A DNA stretch of 51,421 nucleotides from a virus (lineage: Duplodnaviria; Caudoviricetes), in the IMG/VR virus record IMGVR_UViG_3300042994_000002, positions 1 to 51,421 of that record; one strand, 5' to 3'. This document shows, piece after piece, positions 24,328 through 49,568 of the stretch. The notes below the pieces were generated by a model, which was not told the origin of the DNA, did no database searches, and saw only the letters and a program-made list of their open reading frames with translations. Positions within the stretch are counted from its first letter, which is position 1. Every line of letters starts with the position of its first letter. The position numbers were made by a program, and so were the translations under genes.

Positions 24328-24786
24328 ATGAAAATCAAGTTCATCGCGCCGTACGCCGGCGCATCCAGCTCGGGCATCTTCGGCGCTGACGGCAAGGAAA
24401 TCCCGCTCGGTACCGAGGTCGAGGTCGAAAAGGAGCCGATCGATCTCCGTGGCCGCTATGAGGTCGTTTCCGGCGGCAATGACGAGGGCAAGACGGCTGT
24501 CAACAATCCGGTCGACGGTGGCCCGCTGAACAAGGCGGCTGTCACCACCGACGGCGAAAACCCGAAGCCGGGCGCCGAGAACGCGCCGCTTTCGCAGACG
24601 GACAACGGCACCGCCGGTGGATCCTCCATCCCCGTCTATGAAGCCCGCGACAAGGGTGAAGGCTGGTGGGGCATCTATGATGCCGACGGCAATCAGGTGG
24701 GCAAGTCCATCCGGAAGGATGAAGCCGCCAAGTTCAATGCCCTCTCCGACGAAGTGAAAGCCGAGTTCGTCAAGCAGGACACCTAA
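24328..24786 (+). CDS. Hypothetical head-associated protein
   Basis: Position after MCP; KGEGWWGI motif. Confidence 0.7.
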   Translation: MKIKFIAPYAGASSSGIFGADGKEIPLGTEVEVEKEPIDLRGRYEVVSGGNDEGKTAVNNPVDGGPLNKAAVTTDGENPKPGAENAPLSQTDNGTAGGSSIPVYEARDKGEGWWGIYDADGNQVGKSIRKDEAAKFNALSDEVKAEFVKQDT

Positions 24787-24821
24787 CGCCTCCGCCCACC
24801 AGATCAGCCAAGGAATTGAAA

Positions 24822-27152
24822 ATGGCCCTGTACTCTCGCTTCATAGCTGCCCTGGTGGGCGCTGGCATCGTCGCAACCGCTCCCTCGGGCGGCGGAACGA
24901 CGCTTGCAATCAGTGGCGTCCCTGGGGGCGCTACAGTCGGTACGCCTTATAGCTTCACGCCTGTTGTCACAGGCGGCAGCGGCACCAAGAGCTTCACCTT
25001 GGTTGGCTCGCTTCCAGCTGGCCTTTCCTTTAGCTCCTCGACGGGCGCGATTACTGGCACCCCCACGACTTCCGGCACATCATCGCCCTTCGATATCATC
25101 GTGTCCGATGCCAGCGGCTCGAAGACCCTTTCCGGACGCGTTATCACCGTCGCGGCCGCCCCCGAGGTGCCGGTCATGGTTGCCCGCAATGCCGTCGTGA
25201 TGACGGGGCCAGGCCACAGTAATGCCGCGCTGCTGACCGGGGACGGCACCGAGAAGACGTATCAGATCGATTTCCAGAACGTTTCTGGCGCGCCGATGAC
25301 CATGGCCAGCCTGGTAACGATCGGCTGGCAGGTCCAGGCAGACGGCGGCGGCGCGCAGAAGCTGAGCGTGGGAAACGACATCACCATCACCTCCGCCACC
25401 ATCGAATATCCCATCGGCGGCGGATCGCCTGCCAGCATGGATGTCGGCACGACGGTCAACGGGGGCATCCGCTCCGGCAATGGCGTGGCGCTGACGAACG
25501 CAGTTCCGCACGGCGCTACGGCCCGGCTGATCCTGAAGGCGACGCCGCCCAACGGTCAGAAGTACAGCGCGAACTTCGGTTTGGCCGGCATTCGCACCCA
25601 TGCCATGAGCAACACGCTGAGCCCCTGCGGCCTCGGCACCAGCGACAGCATTGCGACCAACGACGGCAGCTACTGCATCAGCGCCGCCAACGACAATTAC
25701 CCGTGGGTGCACTTCGGAGTTATCGGCAACAAGCTGCAGCGCGCTGCGGCGATGGCAACCGATTACGCCAATCTGGCTGCAGCTCTCAATGCCACGTACT
25801 TCTGCCTGTTCGGCACCAATGACGTGGGCTCCCGCACGCTGGCGCAGATGCAGGGCGATATCGGTACGCTCTCGGCAGCAATGTCCGCGCTGGCCGTGCC
25901 GATGTACTGCCACACGCTCCCGCCGAACGTCACGTCGACGAACGGGACCTATGCGCCCGGCGATCAGACCGTCAGCGCAGCAGAAGCCAACCGGATCGCC
26001 TATAACGACTGGATCCGCACCCAGCCGAGCGGCAACAAAGTGTTCGAGCTGGCGGATACGCTGGAAACCTCGCGCAACTCCGGTTTCTGGAAGTACGGTT
26101 CGGCCGACAACTACCACCTGACCGACAACGAGAATGTCACGGTCTCGGCCGTCACGTCTCAGACCCAGATCGCTTGCTCTGGGATGACGACCCCTTCGGC
26201 CGCGGCTGCATCGGCGGTTCTTCTCGCGACCAGCGGGGCGAATGCCGGGACCACCCGCAGCATCAGCAGTATCTCGGGCACCACGATCTTCCTGGCGTCC
26301 GCGTTCCCAAACACTGTGGCAATCGGCGACACCTTCACGGTCAAGCCTGTCACGAACAAGGCCACGACGGACGGCCTGCACCTGACTGCGCCTTACCCGA
26401 ACGGGTTGCAGTTCGGCGGCTTCTTCATCGCTCGCGATGCCATCCGCTCGCTCATGCTGTCCATCTTGGCAGCGGCGAACAAGGCTCCTCACGTCAAGTG
26501 GGGCGCCATCGATGTCACGGGCGCGAACGGTGCGACGGCGGCGGCCAATGTCAATTATCCGCCCAACATCCAGGTCGATGACCGGGCGTTCATTGTCGTC
26601 GCTTCGTCGAACCAGCCGATCGCCGCTCCTACCGGCTGGACCGAGCGTGCATCGGTCGGATCAGGGACGGCCGGCGCGGCGGGTGCCGTCCGGTGCCAGG
26701 TGTTCGAGAAGGATACCCCGTATGCGGTAGGCGATGCGGTCCCGTCCATCGACGGCACCGGCACCAACCACATCGTCTACAAGATGTTCTCTGTCCGAGG
26801 GGCAAAGAAGGCGGGATCGAGTGTGGCGCAGGTGGCGACAGCCATCGACAGCGCTGCAAGCCTTTCCGGCAGCTTCCCGGCCGTCACCACCACGCAGGAC
26901 GGGTGCCTGATCCTGAACATCCTGGCGGACGAGTACGACAATGCCGGAGCCCGCCTGAGTGGTGAGAGCAACCCGAACTTGCTGTTCCTCACCGAGCGTC
27001 TCGACCTCGGCAACGTCACGGGCAACGGTTCTGGGTTGGGCGTCTACTCAGGGATGCTCCCAGCCGCAGGATCGAGCGGCCAGACGGCATTCACGCACAC
27101 GCAGACCACAGACAAGGCGCTGGTGACGATGGCCATCAGGCGCGACCTGTAA
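24822..27152 (+). CDS. Putative head fibre: He_PIG Ig-like domain + SGNH/GDSL esterase + beta-rich C-terminal domain
   Basis: GSLPAGLSFSSSTGAITGTPT (He_PIG); SGNH blocks TSDSI, GVIGN, FGTND, DGLH. Confidence 0.8.
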   Translation: MALYSRFIAALVGAGIVATAPSGGGTTLAISGVPGGATVGTPYSFTPVVTGGSGTKSFTLVGSLPAGLSFSSSTGAITGTPTTSGTSSPFDIIVSDASGSKTLSGRVITVAAAPEVPVMVARNAVVMTGPGHSNAALLTGDGTEKTYQIDFQNVSGAPMTMASLVTIGWQVQADGGGAQKLSVGNDITITSATIEYPIGGGSPASMDVGTTVNGGIRSGNGVALTNAVPHGATARLILKATPPNGQKYSANFGLAGIRTHAMSNTLSPCGLGTSDSIATNDGSYCISAANDNYPWVHFGVIGNKLQRAAAMATDYANLAAALNATYFCLFGTNDVGSRTLAQMQGDIGTLSAAMSALAVPMYCHTLPPNVTSTNGTYAPGDQTVSAAEANRIAYNDWIRTQPSGNKVFELADTLETSRNSGFWKYGSADNYHLTDNENVTVSAVTSQTQIACSGMTTPSAAAASAVLLATSGANAGTTRSISSISGTTIFLASAFPNTVAIGDTFTVKPVTNKATTDGLHLTAPYPNGLQFGGFFIARDAIRSLMLSILAAANKAPHVKWGAIDVTGANGATAAANVNYPPNIQVDDRAFIVVASSNQPIAAPTGWTERASVGSGTAGAAGAVRCQVFEKDTPYAVGDAVPSIDGTGTNHIVYKMFSVRGAKKAGSSVAQVATAIDSAASLSGSFPAVTTTQDGCLILNILADEYDNAGARLSGESNPNLLFLTERLDLGNVTGNGSGLGVYSGMLPAAGSSGQTAFTHTQTTDKALVTMAIRRDL

Positions 27153-27248
27153 GGACGTGACGAACATGGATGCAATGCGTGCGCTCGCTCCTGAATGGGC
27201 GGGCGCGCTTACCCGTCCGATGGAGCCAACATCAACTGGAGGCGCAAC

Positions 27249-27458
27249 ATGCCCCCTGTGAGCGTCAATGTCAGAGGGGCGAGTGGCATCGGGCTTCTGG
27301 TCGGGATCGGCATCATCAAGCCTCCGACCCAGCCGCCAGGGGGAGGGGCAGGGGCAGGGCCGATGCTGCTCAACCCCATTCCTGACCAGTTCTATCTGGG
27401 CAACGCAGCGCCCGTGGTCGCCAACCCGATCGGGGTCGTGATCTACACGCCATCATGA
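27249..27458 (+). CDS. Small (69 aa) fibre-adaptor-like protein, in frame with the next gene
   Basis: GGAGG RBS; IGLLVGIGI N-terminal motif, Pro/Gly linker, two P.xxNPI strands. Confidence 0.6.
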   Translation: MPPVSVNVRGASGIGLLVGIGIIKPPTQPPGGGAGAGPMLLNPIPDQFYLGNAAPVVANPIGVVIYTPS

Positions 27459-27470
27459 GAGGTTCTGCCA

Positions 27471-29024
27471 ATGGTTTGGCATTTCAAGGTCCCGGCGAAC
27501 ACGTTCAGTGATCCGGACGGCGACACGCTGACCTATTCCGCCACCAAGGAAGATGGTAGCCCGCTCTGGAACTGGATGACCTTCGATCCAGTGGAGCGCG
27601 AGTTCACGGCCATCCCTGAGCAAGCGGGCATCTTCTCCGGCATGTTCCGCGTGAAGGTGACGGCGAGCGACGGCGCGGCATCCGTCTCTGACGTGTTCAC
27701 GTTGTTCCTCGGGGACAGTGAAGGCCTGCCGATTTTCGCGTCGCTTCCGGCGACCGCTGCCGAGCGGCCTAAGATCTCGATCTACGACTGCATTATCACC
27801 GGCCCTGGAGTGGCCACGGTCATTTTCGGCCTCAGTGCCATCCCGCGCGGCACCATGGTTTGGAAGTGGACCACGCAGAATGGCGAGAACACCGCGTCGG
27901 GGACCCACTACACGTTCAAGAGCGGATACATCAATTTCCAGCCGGGGGAGCGGTTCGGCTCAGTGCAGGTGCCGATCCTGGCCAACCTAAATGCGAACCA
28001 GCGCATCCGGGTGCAGCTCACCGGGAACGGCCAGAACCTCTCGGGCACGGCGATTCGCGGCACCGCATACATCATGACCCAAGCGGCAGCAGATGCATTC
28101 GCTGCGGCTGGTACGCCGACGGTACCGCCGCCGGTCGGATACGACCTCACAAAGACCATCCTGCCGGGGGTCCCGAAGAACAAGGTGGGCTACACGACAG
28201 TCTTCCATCCCGACCTGATCAATGACTTCCAAGCATCCGACACGGGCTACAAGGCTGACGGTGTCACGCCCTGCTGGTTCTCCAAGCCCCATGAGGGAGC
28301 AACCTCGATGTCCGGCCGCGAGCAGACCGGCAACAAGGAGGATGGCATCTATGCGGATCCCTCTTTGCCGCAGTTCGCCGGCCTTAATTCTTTCCCGCTG
28401 GTGACGGATGGGGGAGAGCAGTACCGGGCGGTGCGCGCAGAATATCTGGATGGGCAGAACGGCAAGCCCGGCCCCATCCCGAGCCCGAGCATCGCGAAGA
28501 CATACGAATACGCAGCCGCGATGATCACAAGCCGGACCTTGTTCCCGGATATCGACATTGGCGACTTTGTGGAGGCCGAGACGAAAGTAAACCCGGTTGC
28601 CCACACCTGGGCGGCCTTCTGGCTTATGCCGACGGAAGGCTGGCCGCCGGAGATCGACATCTTCGAGTATTTCCTTGTAACACTGGGGAAAGAACGGGTC
28701 GCCAGCACGATCCACTTCGGCGAAGACAAGCGCGCCTACGGCACCTACATCGGCTGGGACGAGATACTCGGCTACACCTGGGACTATGGATCGAAGACGC
28801 GCTGGGGCTGCTGGGTCACGGCCGGCTGGATCGTCTACTACATCAACGACATCCCTTATGCCATGTACCCGAACATGTGCTTGGCAGTGGATGGCCCGAA
28901 GAAGTGGTACATCCTGTTGAACATGGCGGTGGGCGGCAATGGCTCGGGCACCCCGAACAACCCGCAGGAATTTCCCGTGGACATGCTCATCAAGGATGTC
29001 CGGGTGTGGCGGAAGACCGCATAA
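27471..29024 (+). CDS. Cadherin-like/He_PIG + Calx-beta-like + GH16 glycanase (ExsH/EglC-like)
   Basis: VPANTFSDPDGDTLTYSAT; TASGTHY..SG.INFQPGE; WAAFWLMP.GWPPEIDIFE (ExDxxE); YILLNMAVGG. Confidence 0.85.
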   Translation: MVWHFKVPANTFSDPDGDTLTYSATKEDGSPLWNWMTFDPVEREFTAIPEQAGIFSGMFRVKVTASDGAASVSDVFTLFLGDSEGLPIFASLPATAAERPKISIYDCIITGPGVATVIFGLSAIPRGTMVWKWTTQNGENTASGTHYTFKSGYINFQPGERFGSVQVPILANLNANQRIRVQLTGNGQNLSGTAIRGTAYIMTQAAADAFAAAGTPTVPPPVGYDLTKTILPGVPKNKVGYTTVFHPDLINDFQASDTGYKADGVTPCWFSKPHEGATSMSGREQTGNKEDGIYADPSLPQFAGLNSFPLVTDGGEQYRAVRAEYLDGQNGKPGPIPSPSIAKTYEYAAAMITSRTLFPDIDIGDFVEAETKVNPVAHTWAAFWLMPTEGWPPEIDIFEYFLVTLGKERVASTIHFGEDKRAYGTYIGWDEILGYTWDYGSKTRWGCWVTAGWIVYYINDIPYAMYPNMCLAVDGPKKWYILLNMAVGGNGSGTPNNPQEFPVDMLIKDVRVWRKTA

Positions 29025-45812: not shown

Positions 45813-45903
45813 CCGTGGCGAAGTCCCCGCCAAGTAATGTTCACTTTACATCGTCGGCAAAAGACGACAAATCTTCCCCCTCATCTGCCAAGAGGTGTGG
45901 GTC

Positions 45904-47109
45904 ATGATAAATAAGATTCTAGGGATAAACAGCGGGGAATCCGTAAGCGACGTGATTGGACGGCACCGCGGCATTGGCCCGGGCTTTGACGCTCTTCGCC
46001 TTCTCCTCGCATTCTACATTTTCTACGGGCACACGCTGTGGATCGCCGGCGGTGCGGACGCCATGGGTGTCGCCGCAACAGCAGCAACCACGGCCACGAC
46101 GGCCGCCGCTGGTGTCGTCGAGCACGGCACCGCTGGCTTCACTGGCTGGACGCGGCCCTTCCATGTCGCCGCTGTTCCTGTCTTCTTTGCGCTGAGCGGC
46201 TTTCTGGTCTGCGGCAGCGCTGAACGACTTCGCGTCGTGCGGACCTTCCTCGGCTTCCGCTTCCTCCGCATCTTCCCCGCTCTGTCCGTCGAGGTAGCGC
46301 TCTCCGCGCTCCTGCTGGGGCCTCTGCTGACCAACCTCCCCCTGTCGCAGTATTTCACCGACTACCACTTCTTCCGGTATTTCGGGAACATCCCAGGCTT
46401 CGTCACTTTCGAGCTGCCGGGTGTCTTCACGGAGAACCCCGTGAAGGGAACGGTGAACGCCAACCTGTGGACGCTCCCTTCCGAGTTCTATTGCTATCTG
46501 GTGACCTCCGCGCTCATGGCGCTCGGCCTGTTCTTCAACAGGACCGTCTACCTGGGGATCTTGGCCGTCACGACCGTCGTGCTCATCTTTATGAGCCTCT
46601 TCAGCGGTTTCGGCGTCACCGCGGCAGTCCCTTCTCCCTTCCTCATCACCTACTACTTTTTCGTGGGCGTGGCCTTCTTCCAGTGGCGCGAAAAGATCCC
46701 GGTTGACTGGCGGATCTTCCTCGCCTGCGCGGTCATTGGCTTCGGTCTGCTGATGAAAAAGGAACTTGTGTTCCTGGCGCCGATCTTCGTCACCTACTGC
46801 ACGGTGTTCTTCGGCATGGTGCAGATCCCGAAGATCCCGGTCCTGCAGAACGGCGATTATTCCTATGGGATCTATCTGTACGGCTTCCCGATCGCGCAGG
46901 CCCTAGTTGCCATCATGCCGTTGACCTTCATCGGCCATGGATGGCTTTTGCTGGCAGTGGCTACTCTGCTGACGTTGATCTTCTCGATGCTCTCCTGGCA
47001 CTACATCGAGAAGCCGACGCTTGATCTCAAGAAGAAGCTGCCTCCGCGGTTCTTCCCGGTCCCCGCAAAGGTGATCCCGCAGACACCGGAGGTTCGCGTC
47101 AACGCGTGA
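45904..47109 (+). CDS. Acyltransferase-3 (OafA/ExoZ-like membrane O-acyltransferase)
   Basis: FDALR..LA...GH, VPVFFALSGFLV, RFLRIFP, LWTLPSEF, DYSYGIYLY, SWHYIEKP. Confidence 0.93.
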   Translation: MINKILGINSGESVSDVIGRHRGIGPGFDALRLLLAFYIFYGHTLWIAGGADAMGVAATAATTATTAAAGVVEHGTAGFTGWTRPFHVAAVPVFFALSGFLVCGSAERLRVVRTFLGFRFLRIFPALSVEVALSALLLGPLLTNLPLSQYFTDYHFFRYFGNIPGFVTFELPGVFTENPVKGTVNANLWTLPSEFYCYLVTSALMALGLFFNRTVYLGILAVTTVVLIFMSLFSGFGVTAAVPSPFLITYYFFVGVAFFQWREKIPVDWRIFLACAVIGFGLLMKKELVFLAPIFVTYCTVFFGMVQIPKIPVLQNGDYSYGIYLYGFPIAQALVAIMPLTFIGHGWLLLAVATLLTLIFSMLSWHYIEKPTLDLKKKLPPRFFPVPAKVIPQTPEVRVNA

Positions 47110-48769: not shown

Positions 48770-48842
48770 TCCAACCTTGCTCAATAGCTCGTTGCTGGTA
48801 CAAAGCCCTTCGGGAGCATCGGCACGAACAAGGAGCAGAAGC

Positions 48843-49568
48843 ATGAGCAGAGTAGCATTGGTCACAGGCGGCACGCGCGGTATCGGCGCGGCAATAGCTG
48901 TCGCGCTTAAGGAGGCTGGTTACAGAGTGGCTGCCAACTATGCGTTCGACGGGGAGAAGGCCAAGGCGTTCGAGGCAGAGACCGGAATTCCCGTCTACAA
49001 ATGGGACGTCTCCAGCTATGCGGCCTGCGCCGAGGGGATAGCGAGGGTAGAGGGGGATCTCGGCGCGATCGAAATCCTCGTGAACAATGCAGGCATCACG
49101 CGGGACGCCATGTTCCACAAGATGACACCGGATCAGTGGAACGAAGTGATCGGCACCAACCTCACGGGCCTCTTCAACATGACCCACCCCCTTTGGTCCG
49201 GCATGCGTGATCGTGGCTTTGGCCGTGTCATCAACATCTCCTCGATCAATGGCCAGAAGGGGCAGATGGGGCAGGCCAATTACTCGGCGGCCAAGGCCGG
49301 CGATCTGGGCTTCACCAAGGCGCTGGCACAGGAAGGCGCAGCCAAAGGCATCACGGTCAACGCCATCTGCCCTGGATATATCGGCACGGAGATGGTCCGA
49401 GCAATTCCAGAAAAGGTGCTGAACGAGCGCATCATTCCGCAGATCCCGGTCGGTCGTCTCGGGGAGCCGGAAGAGATCGCCCGCTGCGTGCTCTTCCTCG
49501 CGTCGGACGATGCCGGCTTCATTACCGGCTCGACGCTCTCCGCCAATGGCGGCCAGTTCTTCGTCTGA
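48843..49568 (+). CDS. phbB: Acetoacetyl-CoA reductase
   Basis: SDR: TGGTRGIG, NNAGITRDAMFHKM, SSINGQKGQMGQANYSAAK, SANGGQFF; recognisably rhizobial PhbB. Confidence 0.93.
   Translation: MSRVALVTGGTRGIGAAIAVALKEAGYRVAANYAFDGEKAKAFEAETGIPVYKWDVSSYAACAEGIARVEGDLGAIEILVNNAGITRDAMFHKMTPDQWNEVIGTNLTGLFNMTHPLWSGMRDRGFGRVINISSINGQKGQMGQANYSAAKAGDLGFTKALAQEGAAKGITVNAICPGYIGTEMVRAIPEKVLNERIIPQIPVGRLGEPEEIARCVLFLASDDAGFITGSTLSANGGQFFV

Follow-up and report, generated by a model that had tools for sequence, protein, structure and literature searches.

In the chaperone-usher pili (e.g., FimA of the type 1 pilus), an immunoglobulin (Ig)-like fold that is incomplete in one polypeptide is completed by a strand of another, as set out in the relevant part of PMC6615685. 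The phage locus that we describe here resembles the pili in that an acceptor Ig-like fold is short of one strand, in this instance strand A of an enzyme, and in that a separate polypeptide holds a strand that would fit the gap, judging by sequence and a single-chain model. However, the strand that is missing from pilus subunits is the C-terminal strand G, and it comes either from a chaperone or from the next subunit of identical type, which gives its N-terminal extension and so builds a polymer, whereas here the missing strand is the N-terminal strand A and the candidate donor is the C-terminus of a dedicated 69-aa protein with an enzyme as acceptor. No periplasmic chaperone or usher was found among the Pfam and PHROG matches of the genes scanned across positions 18393-49568. 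A man-made counterpart is the SpyTag/SpyCatcher pair, in which a short peptide that constitutes one Ig-like strand, the C-terminal one, docks on the rest of the domain and is held by an isopeptide bond. Our locus likewise has an Ig-like strand on a separate short chain, although nothing indicates an isopeptide lock.

Among phages, the Ig-like domains of T3, A2, A118 and PSA are joined to structural proteins by -1 or +1 frameshifting (Fraser et al., 2006, cited in PMC5009743). There, as here, the coding sequence of a phage Ig-like domain consists of two reading units with a decoding signal in between. In those cases, as far as the citing passage describes them, a whole C-terminal Ig-like domain is added to a capsid or tail protein, whereas here the break lies inside the domain, both units share one frame, there are two start signals and the domain is N-terminal to a glycoside hydrolase. 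By sequence family and fold, the domain belongs with the He_PIG (PF05345) domains of bacterial adhesins and glycoside hydrolases. It differs from those that we collected from metagenome loci in that their strand A is in the same chain for 178 of 215 domain hits, whereas here it resides on another gene product.

The locus lies in a window of 51,421 nucleotides, the whole of the stretch analysed, from IMG/VR virus record IMGVR_UViG_3300042994_000002 (Duplodnaviria; Caudoviricetes), and its features are collected in Table 1. Direct reading of the sequence confirmed what a first-pass annotation had claimed of the junction, namely that the two open reading frames (ORFs) share a frame and are separated by nothing but TGA-GAG-GTT-CTG-CCA, with no second stop before the ATG of the downstream gene, and that this gene has a GAGAGG ribosome-binding site of its own. 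As each of the two ORFs has a Shine-Dalgarno sequence and an ATG, and as that of the enzyme overlaps the stop and is spaced eight bases from its ATG, the junction is arranged like that of a coupled gene pair. A short hairpin that contains the enzyme ATG could serve translational coupling, while the stability of the RNA fold of positions 27440-27560 as a whole is ordinary (z -0.86).

Table 1. Positions of the features of the split-domain locus within the window.
Feature	Position	Strand	Basis or remark
Three-gene block (778 aa, 69 aa, 517 aa)	24816..29024	+	Between post-capsid small protein and head-tail adaptor
Shine-Dalgarno GGAGG of small ORF	27238..27242	+	6 bases 5' of ATG 27249; sequence reading
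Small ORF, 69 aa	27249..27458	+	ORF; homologues; third-position GC
First, partial strand-A motif copy, residues 38-51 (P-M-L-L-N-P-I-P-D-Q...)	27360..27401	+	Custom HMM nodes 16-26
Second copy, residues 52-69: canonical inter-domain linker and strand A, to mid A-B loop	27402..27455	+	Custom HMM nodes 13-23; MAFFT; model
TGA stop of small ORF, in A-B loop of domain	27456..27458	+	Sequence reading
Shine-Dalgarno GAGAGG of enzyme gene	27457..27462	+	Overlaps TGA stop; 8 bases 5' of enzyme ATG
6-bp hairpin TGCCAA / TTGGCA, contains enzyme ATG	27466..27481	+	Fold of 27440-27560
517-aa enzyme gene: He_PIG domain without strand A, Calx-beta-like region, GH16 catalytic domain	27471..29024	+	Pfam, PHROG, homologues, structure-profile search
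Cadherin-like (He_PIG) domain, strand B to strand G, residues 1-83	27471..27719	+	Pfam; custom HMM nodes 33-108
Calx-beta-like region, residues 114-171	27810..27983	+	PF03160, below Pfam threshold
GH16 catalytic motif E-I-D-I-F-E, residues 394-399	28650..28667	+	Alignment

At the level of sequence, the two ORFs prove to be separate, conserved genes that jointly encode one dystroglycan-type cadherin-like (He_PIG) Ig-fold domain, cut in its A-B loop. That the GH16 protein opens in mid-domain and lacks the first strand, as had been proposed, is evident from two profiles. With a score of 29.3 bits (cut-off 24), Pfam He_PIG matches enzyme residues 5-78 over positions 21-93 of its 96-position profile, and since the match opens only at position 21, no whole He_PIG domain is present in the one chain. 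Similarly, in a custom HMM of 112 nodes, built from 114 complete cadherin-like domains of metagenome loci, the window's enzyme and its three homologues all (4/4) begin at node 33, the linker and strand-A nodes being absent. It is on these very nodes, which have no counterpart in the enzyme, that the small ORF gives its partial matches, at residues 38-48 and 52-62; the matches are short and individually weak (per-hit E 0.016 and 0.25 at Z=1; whole-sequence E 0.009). The 69-aa protein can be divided into a strand-rich N-terminal part (residues 1-24), a Pro/Gly-rich linker (residues 25-37) and the two motif copies (residues 38-69). Of the two tandem strand-A copies that had been said to end it, the second holds up, its 18 residues matching the canonical linker and strand A, while the first is only partial, and neither HMM match is strong by itself.

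When aligned by MAFFT with 52 canonical domains, the second copy (residues 52-69) falls on the canonical N-D-A-P-V-v-a-n-P-I column block and the stop falls in the A-B loop. The cut is within a five-residue insertion relative to the canonical domains, and this insertion, together with the TGA codon just 5' of it, makes up an ordinary gene junction of stop, overlapping Shine-Dalgarno sequence, spacer and ATG. An AlphaFold2 model of the product that readthrough of the TGA would give places residues 51-70 at pLDDT 95 and 87, and the first motif copy at only 54-56. As this model is a single chain built from an alignment of complete canonical domains, it indicates that the segment is compatible with the place of strand A and says nothing about assembly in trans. 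It is this model, and this model only, that has a cadherin-like fold by structural comparison: the solved dystroglycan cadherin-like domains of 8yt8 and 8uf4 align with its residues 52-157 (Z 12.8, rmsd 1.9-2.1, 98-99 residues), and the cadherin-like domains of the GH107 endo-fucoidanases 6dlh, 6dms and 6dns follow at Z 9.2. Because the domain alignment starts at model residue 52, approximately 23 of the 106 domain residues are encoded upstream of the enzyme ATG. A prediction of the complex of enzyme residues 1-100 with the small protein, run without controls, reached 0.23 in each of two runs, below the mark of 0.32, and speaks neither for nor against binding, and an AlphaFold2 model of the full 517-aa protein from a four-row alignment (mean pLDDT 51.7) was set aside.

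Is the split kept in related phages? The first-pass annotation had raised this question, and among the relatives, which were compared solely as protein sequences (three small-ORF and four enzyme lineages), the answer is yes. Among 5.8 billion protein clusters there were four full-length enzymes of 517-525 aa, that of the window and three homologues with 51-55% identity, and all four start in mid-domain with M-V-W. An exhaustive HMMER search of 1.84 billion representatives gave two homologues of the small ORF, of 65 aa (58% identity, E 1.5e-13) and 81 aa (53% identity, E 5.5e-8). In both, the alignment extends to the extreme C-terminus of the query, so that all three small-ORF lineages end at the same residue, and both match the same linker and strand-A nodes of the custom HMM, P0055 twice and P0054 once (whole-sequence E 0.003 and 0.013, respectively). 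Conservation in the small protein is highest in the strand-A motif: across the three sequences, which are 52-58% identical, residues 42-69 have 16 invariant positions out of 28, versus seven of 41 in residues 1-41, and the N-P-I-x-D-Q of the first copy is invariant in all three. The longest contig is 33,041 bases both for the 81-aa homologue and for the enzyme homologue P0003, which suggests that the two genes are neighbors there too. Additionally, a second contig, of 843,786 bases, is recorded as encoding a 69-aa and a 517-aa protein identical to those of the window.

A fused form was found neither among the matches of 284-905 aa returned by the enzyme search nor in a search for longer proteins with the small-ORF alignment, the latter being weak evidence. 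Profile searches with the enzyme alignment gave no locus in viral contigs or genome contigs and 66 loci in metagenome contigs, all of them partial and limited to the cadherin-like domain (up to query residue 190). The small-ORF alignment had no match in viral contigs, degenerate motif scans had none in genome contigs or viral contigs, and blastn had none against phage records. The situation in which all homologues are fused and the TGA is specific to one strain, which had been named as fatal to the idea of a split domain, therefore does not apply. With homologues that are unfused and a TGA that is not strain-specific, the trivial explanation is removed, and a strand donor is left as the best fit.

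The explanation that we favor, and to which we give an even chance, is that the gene was split in the A-B loop, that this fission has been maintained and that the small protein would supply strand A in trans. Translation of the pair would probably be coupled, and the C-terminal strand of the small protein would insert beside strand B of the enzyme's incomplete domain, closing the sandwich noncovalently. This would make the small protein the enzyme's obligate partner or adaptor, whose N-terminal part and Pro/Gly linker could bind to something else. Strand donation in trans had been one of two options offered at the outset; conservation and the compatible readthrough model make it the better fit of the two, and it is on these that it rests. 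Against it, readthrough of the TGA adds only 3.5 bits to the custom HMM score, although the alignment then starts from node 13 (93.0 bits) rather than from node 33 for the enzyme alone (89.5 bits). The Pfam He_PIG match is not lengthened by readthrough (29.0 versus 29.3 bits). Finally, an edge strand is dispensable in some Ig-like domains.

The strongest alternative, which we consider possible albeit clearly less probable, is that an ancestral longer gene was cut, that the enzyme domain can do without strand A and that the small protein, a relic or a protein of some other use, does not bind it. That the truncated domain passes the Pfam threshold by itself is in keeping with such independence, as are the rapid divergence of the N-terminal half of the small ORF and the finding that the ORF has no usable match in Pfam, PHROGs or the protein atlas, a word-based search returning only the self-match. 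Broken domains are also not rare, since in-frame stops within cadherin-like domains occur in three unrelated metagenome contigs (L020, L027 and L029). A relic, however, should decay, and yet it is the strand-A motif that is best conserved, the positions of stop and start are kept to the residue in all lineages found, and a well-spaced Shine-Dalgarno sequence and ATG inside a loop insertion would not be expected from random nonsense mutation. As to whether the small ORF is coding, its third-position GC in frame (0.77, against 0.78-0.85 in neighboring genes) is weak support, because the antisense frame scores alike (0.79). A signal peptide or membrane anchor in its hydrophobic stretch (residues 11-23) was considered and set aside, as the 81-aa homologue has no such stretch.

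If the small protein is a strand donor, what might it connect the enzyme to? One bolder version of our preferred reading, which we think rather unlikely, is that the 69-aa protein is a purpose-built bivalent adaptor that would dock the enzyme to a second partner by beta-strand insertion alone. The docking would be done by the two tandem strand-A copies and the strand-rich N-terminal part, and the second partner could be another copy of the enzyme, the 778-aa He_PIG/esterase-like protein or the capsid surface. If true, phages would have a plug-in system for mounting accessory enzymes on the virion, and the engineered split-Ig tags would have a counterpart in nature. An earlier suggestion along these lines, that one adaptor clips two enzymes and anchors them to the capsid, finds no support: a scan of 960 stop-to-stop segments with the custom HMM had no matches other than the enzyme and part of the 778-aa protein, giving no second strand-A-lacking domain in the phage, and the first motif copy has low model confidence. 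Compared with Sinorhizobium phage phiLM21, to whose genes those flanking the block are orthologous, the head module here carries the three-gene block as an insertion. In phiLM21 and RHph_X3_2 the small post-capsid protein is followed directly by the next head-tail gene, annotated as adaptor Ad1 in the former and as a hypothetical protein in the latter.

The other option offered at the outset was that some ribosomes read the TGA as sense, for instance as Trp, and that the resulting 591-aa fusion with its complete domain is the form that matters, the N-terminus of the small ORF acting, for example, as an anchor. The shared frame with four sense codons and no further stop between the ORFs would permit this, the fused product was modelled as a complete domain, and phages are known to add Ig-like domains to structural proteins by recoding, although the cases described in the part of PMC5009743 concerned have another layout, a C-terminal Ig-like domain being appended to a capsid or tail protein. 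The shared frame, moreover, is to be expected after a fission and has a one-in-three chance otherwise. TGA is the ordinary stop of the phage, ending 22 of the 32 genes checked, which also rules out genome-wide recoding of TGA, and tRNA genes are absent from the phage. The RNA 3' of the stop is not unusually stable, and no Rfam recoding or SECIS family was found in positions 27100-27700 (three chance-level matches, E 0.73-5.8), for which reason selenocysteine was dropped as well. Signals for readthrough in bacteria are poorly defined. With its own Shine-Dalgarno sequence and ATG, the enzyme does not depend on readthrough for its expression, and its start Met is invariant in all four enzymes at a position that is variable in canonical domains. 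We therefore judge readthrough to an anchored form improbable, and the weaker of the two options.

A TGA that arose by strain-specific nonsense mutation or by sequencing error, or that marks a pseudogene, is very improbable and already contradicted, for although a lone in-frame stop within a recognizable domain is the classic look of a broken gene, and such stops do occur in other contigs, none of the four enzymes is fused, all three small-ORF lineages stop at the same residue, the identical pair of proteins recurs on the 843,786-base contig and the catalytic motif is intact.

Were the small protein to complete the domain in trans, the locus would show an Ig-like domain divided naturally between two genes at strand A. 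The donor-strand principle would then reach beyond pilus polymers to a phage enzyme and its adaptor, phages would have a means of bolting accessory carbohydrate-active enzymes onto other parts without gene fusion, and for work with cadherin-like domains protein engineers would gain a short strand tag of natural origin. The lesson for annotation is that an in-frame stop within a domain is not always the sign of a pseudogene. A literature search found no description of such a split, which is weak evidence of novelty, as most subscription journals were outside its scope.

The remainder of the 517-aa protein is that of a GH16 enzyme. A profile search against solved structures gave 36 distinct PDB sequences at E <= 0.01, the best being 6jh5_A (E 1.7e-17, profile positions 350-523), and the named matches are GH16 glucanases or laminarinases. 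E394, D396 and E399 are invariant in all seven aligned sequences and form an E-x-D-x-x-E pattern, which we take to be the GH16 catalytic motif. Pfam PF00722 did not match the window's enzyme at E <= 0.1, and four homologues (P0005, P0019, P0028 and P0035) carry it as a precomputed match. For the Calx-beta-like region, PF03160 reached E 0.0025 (18.2 bits against a cut-off of 27) on the window's enzyme and is a precomputed match of homologues. The enzyme is predicted to cut host exopolysaccharide, most likely of beta-glucan type. It matches phrog_17064 (E 6.4e-47), and it shares the Calx-beta-like and GH16 core (27-30% identity over query residues 165/192-606) with the GH16 beta-glucanases of the Sinorhizobium and Rhizobium phages phiM12, phiM7, phiM9, phiN3, RHph_X2_24 and RHph_X3_15. 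Unlike our locus, none of the 13 phage GH16 records covers the He_PIG domain or the small ORF, and in the two records examined the GH16 gene is outside the head module. In RHph_X3_15, a separate gene annotated as "structural Ig-like protein" is located directly upstream of the GH16 gene.

The 517-aa enzyme begins inside a cadherin-like domain, and the part that it lacks appears to lie in the 69-aa small ORF just ahead of it. Pfam He_PIG matches enzyme residues 5-78 over profile positions 21 to 93 of 96 only (29.3 bits, cut-off 24). In a custom HMM of 112 nodes, built from 114 complete cadherin-like domains of metagenome loci, each with 30 upstream residues, the enzyme and its three homologues (4/4) all start at node 33 and so lack the nodes that represent, by consensus, the linker between domains and strand A, the first beta-strand of the domain. 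Two short segments of the small ORF (residues 38-48 and 52-62) match those linker/strand-A nodes, as do two segments of its homologue P0055 and one of its homologue P0054; these matches are weak taken alone (whole-sequence E 0.003-0.013 at Z=1). With the stop read as X, the HMM alignment starts at node 13 (93.0 vs 89.5 bits) and passes through the last 18 residues of the small ORF with a 5-residue insertion; the Pfam He_PIG match was not lengthened by reading through the stop. A MAFFT alignment with 52 canonical domains placed the second copy of the motif on the canonical column block and the stop within the A-B loop.

When the readthrough product was modelled with AlphaFold2 (TGA translated as W, 58-row alignment), mean pLDDT was 78, with residues 51-70 at 95 and 87, and low confidence for the first motif copy (54-56) and residues 1-21 (under 50). 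Residues 52-157 of the model align with solved dystroglycan cadherin-like domains (Z 12.8, rmsd 1.9-2.1, 98-99 residues). As a single chain guided by complete domains, the model shows that the strand-A segment can fit the enzyme's domain, and tells of fit rather than of binding in trans.

The first-pass annotation had described the junction correctly: both ORFs are in one frame, and the TGA is followed by GAG GTT CTG CCA and the enzyme's ATG at 27471, with GAGAGG as the ribosome-binding site. Apart from the stop codon, the overlapping ribosome-binding site, spacer and start all fall within a stretch of five loop residues that canonical domains do not have, an architecture that, judged from sequence, has the look of a selected gene fission. 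A 6-bp hairpin at 27466-27481 (TGCCAA / TTGGCA, loop TGGT), 8 bases past the small-ORF stop, encloses the enzyme ATG; speculatively, it could tie enzyme translation to ribosomes finishing the small ORF.

Positions of junction and structural-module features
Feature	Position	Remark
Terminase large subunit	18393	
Portal	19931	
Head decoration protein	22695	
Major capsid protein	23199	
Shine-Dalgarno GGAGG of small ORF	27238-27242	ahead of ATG 27249
Small-ORF stop TGA	27456-27458	ends 69-aa ORF
GAGAGG of enzyme gene	27457-27462	overlaps small-ORF stop; 8 bases 5' of second ATG
Head-tail adaptor Ad1	29034	
Head closure, head morphogenesis, Neck1, tail terminator genes		also in structural module
Major tail protein	32179	
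Tape measure	33760	
Tail fibres	38672 and 40958	
Endolysin	43761	

Is the split conserved? Querying 5.8 billion clusters with the enzyme in a word-indexed search returned four full-length sequences of 517-525 aa including the window's own, the other three 51-55% identical to it; all four open with M-V-W and then the strand-B motif, and there is no fusion among them. For small-ORF homologues, HMMER run exhaustively over 1.84 billion representatives gave P0054 (65 aa, 58% identity, E 1.5e-13) and P0055 (81 aa, 53%, E 5.5e-8), both of whose alignments reach the last residue of the small ORF; a search for longer proteins with the small-ORF alignment yielded no fused protein, which is weak evidence. 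The longest contig is 33,041 bases for both P0055 and the enzyme homologue P0003, which suggests that the two are neighbours. The split thus withstands the main test that the first-pass annotation had set for it.

We consider that the gene was split under selection in the A-B loop, which would have left strand A on the small protein and the remainder on the enzyme, and that the strand-A segment may go on pairing, in trans, with the domain of the enzyme. The latter is the simplest reading because this segment has been kept whereas the remainder of the small protein diverged (16/28 residues invariant in 42-69 vs 7/41 in 1-41), and on sequence evidence we give fission with pairing in trans an even chance. 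In pili, Ig-like folds are known to be completed by strand complementation (PMC6615685). That the small ORF is instead unrelated or a relic is less probable. Readthrough of the TGA, the other option in the first-pass annotation, is improbable; it may occur at a low level, though it is neither needed nor indicated, as TGA ends 22 of the 32 genes checked, the phage has no tRNA genes, the RNA past the stop shows no exceptional structure (z -0.86), Rfam gave three chance-level matches only in 27100-27700, and the enzyme gene comes with a Shine-Dalgarno and ATG of its own; the start Met, invariant in 4/4 homologues, holds a position that is variable in canonical domains. Ig-like domains are attached by recoding in phages, but in the cases described frameshifting adds whole C-terminal Ig-like domains to capsid or tail proteins (PMC5009743). 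An artefact or nonsense mutation is very improbable indeed, as the conserved split, the lack of any fusion and the listing of identical copies of both proteins, 69 and 517 aa, for a contig of 843,786 bases rule out a strain-specific mutation or assembly error. In the literature that we searched, no cadherin-like domain of a phage enzyme was described as divided at strand A between neighbouring genes; the lineages known to carry such a split are few, and the mechanism that we propose for it is putative.

The window is a complete virus record of 51,421 bases with direct terminal repeats and a siphovirus-type structural module, in which four ORFs (152, 778, 69 and 517 aa) separate the capsid gene from Ad1. 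The closest annotated relatives are Sinorhizobium phage phiLM21 and Rhizobium phage RHph_X3_2 (capsid 67% and 59% identical, respectively); in both, the next head-tail gene comes right after the gene of the small post-capsid protein, and it is annotated as adaptor Ad1 in the former and as a hypothetical protein in the latter. Because the 778-aa, 69-aa and 517-aa genes are missing at this place in both, and the flanking genes have phiLM21 orthologues (152-aa protein 34%, E 1e-23; Ad1 65%, E 1e-78), we infer that 24816-29024 is an accessory block inserted in the head module. Nothing places any of its three proteins on the capsid, to which the enzyme had been proposed to attach. The 152-aa protein (24328-24786) has a ~38-residue Gly/Pro/Asn-rich insertion (residues 61-98) relative to its phiLM21 counterpart.

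The N-terminus of the 778-aa protein (24816-27152) is hydrophobic, and its He_PIG domain (residues 38-104, E 4.5e-10) is complete. The protein also matches a GDSL/SGNH-type hydrolase below threshold (PF13472, E 1.6e-4, 22.6 bits vs 32.9) and, weakly, BR0599 and DUF7243; it may act as an esterase, together with the glucanase, on acylated exopolysaccharide. In the enzyme, a sub-threshold Calx-beta match (residues 114-171) and PHROG 17064 (residues 94-514, E 6.4e-47) follow He_PIG. Pfam PF00722 gave no match reaching E 0.1; a profile of the four close homologues matched solved GH16 laminarinases (best 6jh5_A, E 1.7e-17). At residues 394-399 stands E-I-D-I-F-E, which we take to be the GH16 motif, its E, D and E invariant in 7/7 aligned sequences. 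Annotated relatives are 'beta-glucanases' in 13 Sinorhizobium and Rhizobium phage records (27-30% identity), which lack the He_PIG domain and small ORF since they align only from enzyme residue 165 or later. Exopolysaccharide degradation is a plausible role for the block, because rhizobial hosts produce succinoglycan, and this is trimmed by endoglycanases; one of them, ExoK, is a homologue of endo-beta-1,3-1,4-glucanases (PMC4443731).

In Rhizobium phage RHph_X3_15 (4343-6131) an Ig-like protein and a GH16 enzyme are likewise paired as two genes, a homologous beta-glucanase gene lying directly 3' of a separate 'putative structural Ig-like protein' gene, in a region of early genes with RNA polymerase genes on either side. 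Past the lysis gene of the window, an O-acetyltransferase-like gene (45895-47109; phrog_3333, E 1.1e-25) and a FabG-like reductase gene (48777-49568; phrog_3142, E 2.9e-58) have the appearance of accessory genes, with modification of the host surface as a possible role. In-frame stops also interrupt cadherin-like domains in three unrelated metagenome contigs (L020, L027 and L029); in L029, HMM nodes 7-54 fall in one segment and nodes 59-110 in the next. Errors, pseudogenes, a different genetic code or more natural splits could account for these stops.
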